64,000 nt of DNA from a virus (taxonomy: Duplodnaviria; Caudoviricetes). Under the pieces are notes generated by a model that was given only the letters and a program-made list of their open reading frames with translations, was not told the DNA's origin and made no database searches. Position numbers and translations under genes: made by a program. Below are positions 1 through 4,174 of the stretch, one piece after another; position 1 is the stretch's first letter, and each line of letters begins with the position of its first letter. Location of the stretch: positions 1-64,000 of the IMG/VR virus record IMGVR_UViG_3300010163_000002; one strand, 5' to 3'.

Positions 1-640
1 TTAGCTTTACCTAATTTTCTAGATAAATCCGTATCATTTATCCACGTTATGCCCCTATACGTTTGGCTTATATTTTTAGCGTCCAATACAGCATCTATGA
101 TTTCTTCATATGATTTACCTCTTGCTCTGCGCCCGCTAACATATGAGCTCCCCTTGCCCAATTTTCTAGTTAGATCTATATCATTTATCCACGTTATGCC
201 TCTATATGTCCCACTTCTTTTTTTAGCGTCCAATACAGCATCTATGATTTCTTCATATGATTTACCATTAGCCCTAGTTACGCGAATATATGCATGATTT
301 TTCCCTAATTTTCTAGATAAATCCGTATCATTTATCCACGTTATGCCTCTATATGTCCCACTTCTTCTTTTATTGTCTAATGCTAGGTCTATGATTTCTT
401 CATATGATTTACCATGACTTATATGGTAGCTAACATATTTTTTACCTTTACCTAATTTTCTAGATAAATCCGTATCATTTATCCACGTTATACCCCTATA
501 TGTGCCTCCAGCGTCCAATACAGCATCTATGATTTCTTCATATGATTTACCATGACTTATATGGTAGCTAACATATTTTTTACCTTTACCTAATTTTCTA
601 GATAAATCCCTATTATTTATCCAAGTTATACCCCTATACA
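1..640 (-). repeat. In-frame tandem repeat, 147 bp / 49 aa unit (one unit 138 bp), at least 4.4 copies
   Basis: The Trp codon of YRGITWIND recurs at 42, 189, 336, 483 and 621. Confidence 0.95.
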
Positions 641-1787
641 TTCTGGCGCCATTGTTAAATATATCATTTATCAAATTAATATATTTAAAGCTATCACATA
701 CTACATTTATTATTGGCCTTCTTATTTTTGCGGCTCCAGATCCATTACCAGATAATTCGCGTGCATTGCTTACTGCTTTTTTGGTTTCATATAGAGATTT
801 AGTAACATCAATAAATAATGGAGATTCTTCGGTTTTGATCTTGCATAATCTACCGAATACTTGTAATAAAGTATGGTAGTATTGCACATGCCTGTATAAG
901 AGTATACCATTCTGGGATTTGGGATGGATTCCCTCTAATAACATAGACACAGATAATATTATGGCCTTGCCATCATAGGAATCAAACTCATTGATTATAG
1001 AATCCGAATCTATTCCATTATATAACTCGAATATTTTATAATCTGGGAACAATCTTTCAATAGATAACCTATTTGCTTTAAGGTCTCTTATTGTTGAAAA
1101 ATATGCTAGCCAATGAGTTATATTTGGATTCTCATCTATTATATTTTGCAACATGGTTTTGGTGCTATCAATATTATACTTGTGGTAATACTTGTCTACT
1201 TCGCCGTTGGTATCTTTGATTAATTTATCAACGTCGTCTATTGCTATAGCATAGTTTATAAGTGGAAATAATCCAGCATCAAATGCTTCAGCAATATCCA
1301 TTCCTTTAATATAATTATCAAAGAAATCTTCTGTATGAATTTCTACATTGTTACAGATTACATTTGGTGTAGCAGACATACCAAAAAAGTATTTACCATT
1401 CTTAACATAATCAGATCCTACTGTAAGAAGATTTTTACCTTGAATATCTGATGCCAAATGATGAGCTTCATCAACAAATATTGCGTCAAAACTATAGCAC
1501 CATTCCGTTATCCTATTAAAAGTTGTAAAGGTTACCATAGTAACATTATTTCTAATAAGTTCAAACTCTTTATAGCTACGAATGTTATTCCATATAGCAA
1601 TCTTAGGAACAACATATAAGACCCTTTTATCCTTAAACCTCTCAGCCACAAGAGCCATAAGAATAAAGGATTTCCCAAGCCCTGTGGCTTGGGAAAAGAA
1701 TATCGAATGTTCTCCTTTATCCATTAAATCGTAGATCTGATTTAATATTTCCTCATTATGGGGATATAATTGTATTTTCTTTTTCAT
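1..1787 (-). CDS. SF2 (DEAH, Res-like) helicase with C-terminal tandem HTH-like repeats; 3' end lies outside the window
   Basis: Manual translation from ATG at 1787 (GGAG SD upstream): QATGLGKS (motif I), VDEAHH (II), MSATP (III), LLEG (V), QVFGR (VI). The frame stays open to base 1, so it is missing from the ORF track. Confidence 0.85.
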   Translation of the reverse strand, partial: MKKKIQLYPHNEEILNQIYDLMDKGEHSIFFSQATGLGKSFILMALVAERFKDKRVLYVVPKIAIWNNIRSYKEFELIRNNVTMVTFTTFNRITEWCYSFDAIFVDEAHHLASDIQGKNLLTVGSDYVKNGKYFFGMSATPNVICNNVEIHTEDFFDNYIKGMDIAEAFDAGLFPLINYAIAIDDVDKLIKDTNGEVDKYYHKYNIDSTKTMLQNIIDENPNITHWLAYFSTIRDLKANRLSIERLFPDYKIFELYNGIDSDSIINEFDSYDGKAIILSVSMLLEGIHPKSQNGILLYRHVQYYHTLLQVFGRLCKIKTEESPLFIDVTKSLYETKKAVSNARELSGNGSGAAKIRRPIINVVCDSFKYINLINDIFNNGARMYRGITWINNRDLSRKLGKGKKYVSYHISHGKSYEEIIDAVLDAGGTYRGITWINDTDLSRKLGKGKKYVSYHISHGKSYEEIIDLALDNKRRSGTYRGITWINDTDLSRKLGKNHAYIRVTRANGKSYEEIIDAVLDAKKRSGTYRGITWINDIDLTRKLGKGSSYVSGRRARGKSYEEIIDAVLDAKNISQTYRGITWINDTDLSRKLGKA

Positions 1788-2127: not shown

Positions 2128-2919
2128 TTATTTAATGCATATAGTTTCAGTATCTTTTTTGAAATCTAAACTCATTGCTACCTCGGCTGATAAACATGCG
2201 AAACCGTCTTTAACCGCTTCGCTGTAAATAATATCTAGCTGCCTTAAATGTATTAAGTTAAAATACATTCCATGTATTGACACTCCTAATCTAACAATAG
2301 TTGAATCTCCATTGAATATATCAGCATACTTAGAAGGCAGAACAATTTGCGCTGTTTGTAATTTTGTATTAATTGAGGCTGTAAATACATACTTTATTAC
2401 AGTTTTAGATAATATGTCTTTTGTAACAATATTATCATTATTTCTTATTAATATAGATAATTGTGGCAGATCAAATTCTTCTTTTTGGAATTTAAACTGA
2501 ATCCATTTAGGCTCATTTTCTCTATAATCCAGCCAGCTACTTGGATTATCTTTACCGGTGACTTCTTTCACCATGTCTAATAATCTTTCTCCGGCTTTCT
2601 TGGATTTAAGAAAACAAGCTAAATCATAACCGATTACTCTTGGCCGTGCATATTCTCCATTTTCTGGTCTTGGGTCAGGCCATTCATACGGATGCCACGG
2701 AATTCCTTTCCTTGGATGCTCCTGAAGTTTTGGCGCTTCATCGCCGAATGTTAACCTAGATTGTTTTAATCCATCCGCAAGAATTATAAATTCAGTTTTA
2801 CATTCCTCGCATATTACAGGCAGCGTATCTCCTGTTCTAAAATTCATAGTATTTGATACATCGCATCCGCATTTAGGGCAACCATATTTTAAATAATCTT
2901 TATAACTAATTGCAATCAT
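2128..2919 (-). CDS. hypothetical protein with N-terminal Zn ribbon
   Basis: CPKC...CEEC pair; AAGGAGG SD. Confidence 0.7.
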   Translation of the reverse strand: MIAISYKDYLKYGCPKCGCDVSNTMNFRTGDTLPVICEECKTEFIILADGLKQSRLTFGDEAPKLQEHPRKGIPWHPYEWPDPRPENGEYARPRVIGYDLACFLKSKKAGERLLDMVKEVTGKDNPSSWLDYRENEPKWIQFKFQKEEFDLPQLSILIRNNDNIVTKDILSKTVIKYVFTASINTKLQTAQIVLPSKYADIFNGDSTIVRLGVSIHGMYFNLIHLRQLDIIYSEAVKDGFACLSAEVAMSLDFKKDTETICIK

Positions 2920-3292: not shown

Positions 3293-3691
3293 CTAATCCC
3301 TCCCTTGGAAAAAGAATACATGAGTTTCAATACCCATATACATTGCTATACTAATCATATTTCTTGTGTCTATAGATTTACCGTCCCAGAATATCACAAG
3401 CATGATATTAGTTTTATAAACTGAGGCATCTTTAATTGCTGTCAATGCCATATCAATATTTCTTTCGTATACAGCGTATTTACCGCGCGTTTCCCAATCT
3501 GCCGGCATTATCAATAAATCTGTCCCATAGTCAATGGCAAACTTCTCTCCAAGTTTATCGGCGCCTTCATCTCCACCGGAAATAATTGTTATGTGGTTGC
3601 TTCTAGGGCTTAGAAGATTATAGAGTTTAGTTTGCAACATTTTGTAATCATCAAACTCTCTGCTTCCTGTCACAATACATGTAATATACAT
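3293..3691 (-). CDS. SLOG superfamily (YspA/DUF2493-like) protein
   Basis: VTGSREFDDY, ISGG..GAD, ADW...G..A...RN and FWDGKS motifs. Confidence 0.85.
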   Translation of the reverse strand: MYITCIVTGSREFDDYKMLQTKLYNLLSPRSNHITIISGGDEGADKLGEKFAIDYGTDLLIMPADWETRGKYAVYERNIDMALTAIKDASVYKTNIMLVIFWDGKSIDTRNMISIAMYMGIETHVFFFQGRD

Positions 3692-3751: not shown

Positions 3752-4174
3752 TTAATTATGCAAATTTAAATCATCCGTAAGTTTGTTTACATCTCTGATT
3801 TTTTCAAGCATTAGGCCTAGATAATTTTTACCTTCGCCCTTACACTTTCCCCAGAATCTATCTCCCCATGTGTTGTCCTCTACTATAGGACCATTAACCT
3901 GAAGCAATAAACCCATAAGATTTCTATCGGAAAATTTATAGCATAATAGTTCCCACATGATACGTATTTTAACATGCTCCCAATCGCTTCTTAATCTTAC
4001 TCTTCTACCAAGTCTTTTCGCTTGAGAGGGATTTAAATTAACAAATTCCTGTTCCCTACCAGGACATTTTTGCGCTTGAAACGCTGCTTCTACGCTACCA
4101 TAATGATAACCATTATACTCAATATCACATGGATAAAAATTGCTTAAGAAAAAATAATTTCCTTCCATATGCAT
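3752..4174 (-). CDS. NADAR (YbiA-like) family protein
   Basis: FLSNFY, SVEAAFQAQK, AKRLGR, RSDWE, DRFWG and GKNYLG motifs. Confidence 0.92.
   Translation of the reverse strand: MHMEGNYFFLSNFYPCDIEYNGYHYGSVEAAFQAQKCPGREQEFVNLNPSQAKRLGRRVRLRSDWEHVKIRIMWELLCYKFSDRNLMGLLLQVNGPIVEDNTWGDRFWGKCKGEGKNYLGLMLEKIRDVNKLTDDLNLHN

Follow-up and report, generated by a model that had tools for sequence, protein, structure and literature searches.

Motors of superfamily 2 (SF2) such as HsdR, SauUSI, and XPB are double-stranded DNA (dsDNA) translocases that operate from a part devoted to anchoring or recognition. Characterized homing endonucleases carry only a few NUMOD-type modules each, and the repeats of transcription activator-like effectors (TALEs) have two hypervariable residues. 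NUMOD-type modules are extended when bound to their long asymmetric sites and make sparse contacts (PMC3239194). The protein analyzed here joins an SF2 motor to a tandem array of helix-turn-helix (HTH)-like units. It is encoded at 3..1787 on the minus strand of the window, by which we mean the whole analyzed stretch of 64,000 nucleotides, bases 1-64000 of a single 248,905-bp virus contig (IMG/VR record IMGVR_UViG_3300010163_000002) from a jumbo phage of ~249 kb. The reading we favor, with a confidence only a little above even, is that the array forms a DNA-tethering tail of at least six flexible HTH modules on a dsDNA motor, with the NUMOD1/I-TevI modules as distant relatives. A motor tethered to DNA by a variable HTH-repeat tail is an undescribed design; literature searches, whose limited coverage makes them weak evidence of novelty, returned no description of an SF2 motor combined with such an array. 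For the array, we infer DNA binding, a DNA-contacting helix 2, and anchoring, and the hairpin-plus-three-helix HTH fold of its unit is predicted or assigned by remote similarity.

An earlier note, made from the letters of the window, had described an SF2 helicase with tandem HTH-like repeats that was missing from the list of open reading frames (ORFs). The helicase and the repeats hold, and the ORF is present: it spans 595 amino acids (aa), runs off the edge of the window, and has the ribosome-binding site AAGGAG ahead of its ATG. The first 115 bp of the contig are identical to its last 115 bp (window 1-115 and contig 248791-248905), and when the two ends are joined with this overlap removed, the ORF continues in frame and in repeat register for 82 further codons, which retrieves the part of the gene that the earlier note saw cut off. 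The coding sequence at 3..1787 (-) thus comprises codons 1-595 of 677, and L001 9639..9885, at the opposite contig end with the 115-bp overlap taken off, supplies the last 82 codons and the stop. The whole protein of 677 aa consists of a motor region (aa 1-383, motor plus linker, 639..1787, minus strand) and six tandem units of 46-49 aa (aa 384-677). On the minus strand, units 1 to 4 occupy 501..638 (aa 384-429), 354..500 (aa 430-478), 207..353 (aa 479-527), and 60..206 (aa 528-576), and the first 19 codons of unit 5 occupy 3..59; the rest of unit 5, followed by unit 6, occupies L001 9639..9944 at the contig end. The earlier note quoted four variable segments exactly, namely GKKYVSYHISH at 552..584 and again at 414..446, NHAYIRVTRAN at 267..299, and GSSYVSGRRAR at 120..152, and those of units 5 and 6 read AKGYVRAHRKY and FDAYTSYHRKR. 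The virus record is classed in IMG/VR as having direct terminal repeats, with a CheckV completeness of 79%. This 115-bp terminal repeat (1..115, no strand assigned) is repeat scaffold only, the end of one unit and the start of the next, which argues that the contig was broken inside the array by the assembler, that units may have been collapsed, and that six is a minimum. The terminal repeat behind the completeness call therefore sits within a coding repeat, and such arrays can yield terminal-repeat calls. The array is the sole sizeable tandem repeat in the genome; blastn and tblastn of the unit against the whole genome found no copies outside it, and no paralogs of the motor were found in this genome.

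The motor scores 57 bits for Pfam ResIII, where the cut-off is 22.5, and contains motif I (ATGLGKS), motif II (DEAHH), motif III (SAT), motif V (EGIH), and motif VI (QVFGR). Motifs I, II, III, and V and the QxxGR part of motif VI are unchanged across 53 relatives, in which G38, K39, D106, E107, H109, H110, A139, T140, E285, G286, H288, Q309, G312, and R313 are invariant. Pfam Helicase_C is not matched by the query, and a profile of the family aligns over both lobes of SauUSI and HsdR. Against the PDB, this family profile finds HsdR (3h1t, 1e-18) and SauUSI (7clg, 1e-16, entry identity confirmed), followed by XPBII (3e-11), RadD (6.5e-9), VETF-s (2.4e-5), and, more weakly, T4 UvsW. Judged by sequence, the motor belongs to the SF2 DEAH ATPases, is of the HsdR/SauUSI/XPB/RadD type, and has motifs I, II, III, and V intact. 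PHROGs, NCBIfam, and PADLOC add no more than a generic "DNA helicase" and contain no match for the units. As in HsdR and SauUSI, a dsDNA translocase is tied to a separate, fast-evolving, and recombining target-recognition part; here that part would be a phage-encoded HTH array, a candidate for the role played in restriction enzymes by HsdS target-recognition domains or an SRA-like domain. Unlike type I and type IV restriction enzymes, the protein and its immediate neighbors have no nuclease or methylase domain that we could find. A nuclease domain in particular was detected neither in the query protein nor in longer relatives by Pfam, nor in the flanking ORFs by Pfam and PHROGs. We therefore rejected an identity as an ATP-dependent restriction enzyme, for which a related motor and a candidate recognition part are present and no nuclease was found.

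The evidence that the repeated unit is HTH-like comes from structure prediction, residue patterns, and profile matches, and it agrees with what the earlier note proposed. Confident AlphaFold2 predictions of the unit, made from one alignment of 119 three-unit windows and another of 147 single units (predicted local distance difference test 88 and 87, respectively), start with a two-strand β-hairpin (YRG/ITW) and helix 1 (DLSRKLG); a short loop leads into helix 2, formed by the variable segment, and a turn (GKS) separates it from helix 3 (YEEIIDAVLD). The placement of units relative to one another has low confidence (predicted template modeling score, pTM, 0.44 for the three-unit model), and the best-supported reading of these models is an array of flexible beads on a string rather than a TALE-like solenoid. 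A classical 20-residue HTH has hydrophobic residues at positions 4, 8, and 15, a small residue at 5, and glycine at 9, with the recognition helix following. With the mapping anchored on G18 as the position-9 glycine, unit residues L13, S/A14, L17, G18, and V/I24 occupy positions 4, 5, 8, 9, and 15 and fit this pattern. Over 289 family units, entropy falls below 1 bit at many scaffold positions (Y2, G4, L13, L17, I38, L42, D43) and reaches 2.6-4.0 bits at nine variable positions, with 3.3-4.0 bits at positions 20-22 and 25-27; positions 28-30 are rich in arginine and lysine. These three stretches correspond to HTH positions 11-13, 16-18, and 19-21, the N-terminal turn and outer face of the recognition helix. 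In this alignment, the hypervariable residues (HTH positions 11-13, 16-18, and 20) fall on canonical DNA-contact positions of the putative recognition helix, in keeping with the role that the earlier note had assigned to the variable segment. K, S, R, N, Y, and H are abundant in the segment, whose net charge averages +2.4, and helix 3 is acidic (net charge -1.9) and strongly conserved.

Profile and fold comparisons place the closest relatives of the unit among duplex DNA binders. The families matched in a Pfam scan of the 147 single units are nearly all HTH, including HTH_24 (12 units), Phage_CI_repr (10, best 1.9e-7), KorB (9), HTH_3 (8), and NUMOD1 (5 units at E <0.1, best 0.0023). HA-domain helicases likewise combine an SF2 motor with a C-terminal array of small helical modules, but their repeat family is a different one: PF03457 is absent from the query's Pfam match list and from the 25 families shown for single units. 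Against the PDB, the unit profile aligns over unit positions 9-31 with the HTH of the DNA-binding protein TraN/AM32 (E 0.0016) and with Cro and XRE proteins, and LacI is likewise among the nearest duplex-binding relatives. Foldseek against BFVD with the three-unit model returned a NUMOD1 protein (4.3e-5) and an intron-associated endonuclease (6.4e-5) at the top, with weaker matches (E ~1e-3, to 1.3e-3) to one HNH and one GIY-YIG endonuclease; against the PDB, Foldseek found nothing at E <=0.001 with either the three-unit or the one-unit model. A GIY-YIG endonuclease with many units, P0191, scores I-TevI_DNA-bd at 2e-27, and hhalign aligns the query unit with one of its units at E 4.8e-5 and a probability of 68%. 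With the NUMOD1/IENR1/I-TevI_DNA-bd modules of I-TevI and I-HmuI (PF07453, PF20987, PF22083), the phage units have in common a small hairpin-plus-HTH organization, a tandem arrangement, short linkers, and occurrence in phages; the same fold and tandem arrangement emerged from BFVD and hhalign, and a few members and units give weak Pfam matches to NUMOD1 or I-TevI_DNA-bd. In contrast to homing endonucleases, the phage array is fused to an SF2 motor, lacks a nuclease, and is present in 6-11 copies. The query unit also differs from NUMOD1 modules in having an extra, strongly conserved acidic third helix (SYEEIID) and a scaffold that is homogenized within each protein. The phage's own genome contains sub-threshold Pfam matches to NUMOD1 and no others.

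This homogenization is visible in the DNA. Tandem Repeats Finder reports a period of 147 bp with 4.4 copies at 5..638. Between units, the scaffold is on average 90% identical in nucleotides (84-95%), compared with 48% for the 33-nt (11-codon) variable segment. At identical residues, synonymous codon differences number 66 of 417 in the scaffold (16%) and 20 of 46 in the variable segment (43%), which indicates that the scaffold was homogenized later than the variable segments diverged. The earlier claim that the scaffold is nearly invariant even in DNA was thus too strong, and the pattern points to concerted evolution, probably by gene conversion. Unit 2 is the exception among the units, a recent 138-bp duplicate of unit 1 (97% match) with an identical variable segment. 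The trend extends to relatives: scaffold identity is 0.63 within proteins versus 0.47 between them, with 0.21 versus 0.15 at variable positions, and in the DNA of three relatives the homogenized scaffold is also present, more weakly than in the query. A role for the variable segments as the target of a diversity-generating retroelement was rejected, since blastn/tblastn of the unit against the whole genome returned the array alone and no template repeat differing from the variable region at adenines.

The family comprises 81 homologs, all metagenomic and many of them on contigs of 100-266 kb, and no match was found in deposited phage genomes by DNA, whole protein, or array alone. About 60 of the 81 carry between 1 and 11 units, and a few also have units N-terminal to the motor. 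Other members have Myb/SANT-like arrays or a third HTH-like repeat at the same position: 4-9 Myb/SANT-like repeats (WTEEED...RLPGRT...LGL) replace the YRGITW units in P0039, P0050, P0052, P0059, and P0268, and the third type (FRGE..ECC..SKQEAIEYYL) occurs in P0077 and P0079. The single longer fused form is an 1115-aa relative of the Myb type. Paralogs also occur side by side. In a related 260-kb phage (L002:10001-14264), a 7-unit helicase is followed by a paralog with 2 units and a C-terminal dUTPase domain, and another relative has two array helicases in tandem with 9 and 6 units. Beyond the helicases, a unit-profile search of 1.84 billion representative proteins returned 1108 clusters. Metagenomic proteins built with the same kind of unit include P0191, P0161, and P0137; P0191 (781 aa) has ~14 unit-like copies flanking its GIY-YIG nuclease domain, and P0161 exemplifies stand-alone arrays of 6-8 similar units. 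P0234 and P0257 consist of a dozen or more HTH_23/HTH_24-type repeats.

Comparison of repeat number and order among relatives bears out the earlier suggestion that recombination drives change in the array. Close relatives within 90% clusters differ by whole units, mostly distal ones (5 vs 9, 3 vs 6, and one cluster with 5, 6, and 7), differences that could in part reflect assembly collapse. Motor and array histories are discordant: the motors of P0025 and P0035 are 61% identical and their arrays 97%, and for P0035 and P0074 the values are 92% and 70%. Two contigs (L008 and L009) are near-identical in DNA upstream and through the motor (synonymous divergence, dS, 0.009), diverge by 8-20% from the second unit to just beyond the gene, and are then identical again, and a third allele is a recombinant of these two. 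From these alignments, the sharply bounded block is apparently either an array exchange by recombination or an old polymorphism kept there. The ratio of nonsynonymous to synonymous divergence (dN/dS) over three pairs is <=0.14 for the motor, 0.22 for the scaffold, 0.55 for linkers, and, pooled, 0.66 for variable positions; by pair, the variable positions give 0.44, 0.61, and 0.97, the last beside a scaffold value of 0.19. Amino acid substitution fractions over ten pairs are 0.12 for the motor, 0.15 for the scaffold, 0.35 for linkers, and ~0.30 for variable positions. By these measures, the variable helix is far less constrained than the scaffold, and dN/dS over the three pairs does not demonstrate positive selection on it. 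This rapid array turnover also bears on the comparison with XPB/Rad25, RadD, and vaccinia VETF-s, whose SF2 cores are related to the phage motor. XPB and VETF-s are anchored dsDNA translocases beside multisubunit RNA polymerases. Unlike in those systems, we found no link of the phage helicase to polymerase genes, and rapid array turnover argues against recognition of a conserved promoter.

We propose that the modules would line up along duplex DNA, each with the second helix, which is basic and variable (HTH positions 11-20), inserted into a major groove or close to one. Together, several weak contacts could then keep the motor anchored along some 50-60 bp of DNA, with a sequence preference that is probably loose, and ATP-driven translocation from this anchor might unwind or loop the DNA or strip proteins from it. 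The tail changes through unit duplication and loss, through gene conversion that homogenizes the scaffold, and through recombination of whole arrays between phages. Several observations weigh against this picture. The second arginine that motif VI normally contains is missing in all members of the family (QxxGRxx-). The fold matches of the 47-aa unit are weak (VIA-align Z <=4.1, with I-TevI 1t2t at Z 2.5), and UBA/CUE three-helix bundles are mixed with HTH domains among them. Query units score below every Pfam gathering threshold, NUMOD1 giving 16 bits against a cut-off of 22.8 (E 0.015), and on that ground we treat the unit as distantly related to the NUMOD1/I-TevI class of modules and outside those Pfam families. 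No repeated (iteron-like) candidate target site was found in the phage genome beyond the array itself. The surface that truly matters for function could be helix 3, which is acidic and strongly conserved. Finally, the variable positions evolve approximately like linkers (0.66 vs 0.55), so that their variability may mean low constraint and not retargeting.

The last two points are the substance of an alternative in which the array is a protein-interaction or oligomerization module, with acidic helix 3 and the hairpin functional and helix 2 unconstrained. We regard this as unlikely, if the foremost of the alternatives. It would account for helix 3 being acidic and the most conserved, for the linker-like evolution of the variable positions, and for the VIA-align scores, in which UBA/CUE and death-domain three-helix bundles do as well as HTH domains. 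It fits poorly with the classical HTH motif (glycine at 9, a small residue at 5, and hydrophobic residues at 4, 8, and 15), with sequence matches in Pfam and the PDB that are nearly all to DNA-binding HTH families, and with BFVD matches to the DNA-binding arrays of homing endonucleases. Nor would it explain why the variable helix stays basic, at +2.4, or why sister proteins have Myb-like arrays at the same position. That the array binds RNA, single-stranded DNA, or a DNA structure, making the protein an RNA or branched-DNA helicase, seems to us distinctly improbable. SF2 cores of similar size do include RNA helicases, the profile has weak matches to RIG-I, Dicer, and eIF4A, and some HTH-like folds bind RNA; the best matches of the core, however, are the dsDNA translocases HsdR, SauUSI, XPB, and RadD, and the nearest relatives of the unit (I-TevI/NUMOD1, TraN, Cro, LacI) bind duplex DNA. 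We give hardly any credence to a mis-assembled or decaying gene with functionless repeats. The contig does break inside the array, and its 115-bp "terminal repeat" is repeat scaffold, but across the junction the reading frame is uninterrupted and the repeats keep their register, purifying selection acts on the scaffold (dN/dS 0.22), and the same architecture recurs in dozens of independent assemblies.

The earlier note had gone further than tethering, proposing a reader with TALE- or zinc-finger-like logic in which each unit reads its own short subsite, the order of units spells a long target, and recombination retargets the motor. Like TALE and zinc-finger arrays, the phage array consists of tandem near-identical units that differ in a short segment, evolve in concert, and change in number. 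In favor of such a reader, variability is concentrated at canonical HTH contact positions, units are gained, lost, and swapped mainly at the distal end in close relatives, different motors have traded arrays, related phages carry neighboring helicase paralogs whose arrays differ, and in one pair dN/dS reaches 0.97 at variable positions against 0.19 in the scaffold. Yet a code of this type found no support. Unlike TALE repeats, the units vary at nine to eleven positions each, with 278 distinct variable segments among 289 units and thus no small alphabet, and they are probably independent domains on linkers rather than a solenoid, with no confident inter-unit geometry (pTM 0.44). The pooled dN/dS of 0.66 is not above that of linkers and gives no sign of positive selection, and relaxed constraint accounts for the variability no less well than retargeting. 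Furthermore, the differences in unit number may be partly assembly collapse, and the NUMOD-type modules of characterized homing endonucleases make sparse, partly nonspecific contacts (PMC3239194). We accordingly consider a programmable reader improbable. The same low expectation attaches to its broader form, a DNA-address module reassorted by recombination, in which units would prefer their own subsites through HTH positions 11-13, 16-18, and 20 and would retarget the translocase as well as unit-bearing dUTPases and nucleases. If it were true, the DNA-address array would join zinc fingers and TALEs as a third natural scaffold for modular DNA reading, and phages in conflict with their hosts or with competing phages would retarget through the exchange, duplication, or conversion of units.

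The genomic context of the helicase is a conserved but uninformative block of accessory genes, with dUTPase, NADAR, and DUF6582 genes recurring near its homologs in related phages, and neighboring ORFs considered as a partner nuclease had no Pfam or PHROGs match. Upstream of the helicase, a SLOG-family (YAcAr) gene adjoins a NADAR gene (window 3293-3691 and 3752-4174, both on the minus strand), and NADAR also lies near helicase homologs in L004 and L005. A 263-aa ORF at window 2128-2919 (-) has an N-terminal zinc-ribbon-like motif (CPKCGC...CEEC) and no family match. Two genes downstream of the helicase, a 156-aa ORF (L001:8713-9183, minus strand; contig 247618-248088) contains an HExxH motif (VHELLH) and has no Pfam or PHROG match. 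A 1054-aa protein (L001:4705-7869, minus strand; contig 243610-246774) combines DUF6582 with a HAD hydrolase domain and, by eye only, a metallophosphatase-like GD..GNHD stretch; DUF6582 proteins also occur near the helicase in related 260-kb phages. In a 166-kb relative (L004:2579-6908), the array helicase adjoins a sigma-70-like gene, a second ResIII helicase, and an ArdC-N/MPTase "polyvalent protein" gene, which suggests an early or anti-defense gene block in that phage.

The rapid turnover of the arrays, the expansion of paralogs, and the exchange between lineages agree less well with recognition of a conserved origin or promoter, and suggest that the array helicase may take part in conflict with hosts or competing phages. 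At 46 aa, the unit itself is a compact HTH scaffold whose variable helix is clearly delimited, and it could serve protein-engineering studies. If the tail does anchor the motor, it would represent a widespread but unnamed design in large uncultured phages, and would explain how a generic translocase gets an address.

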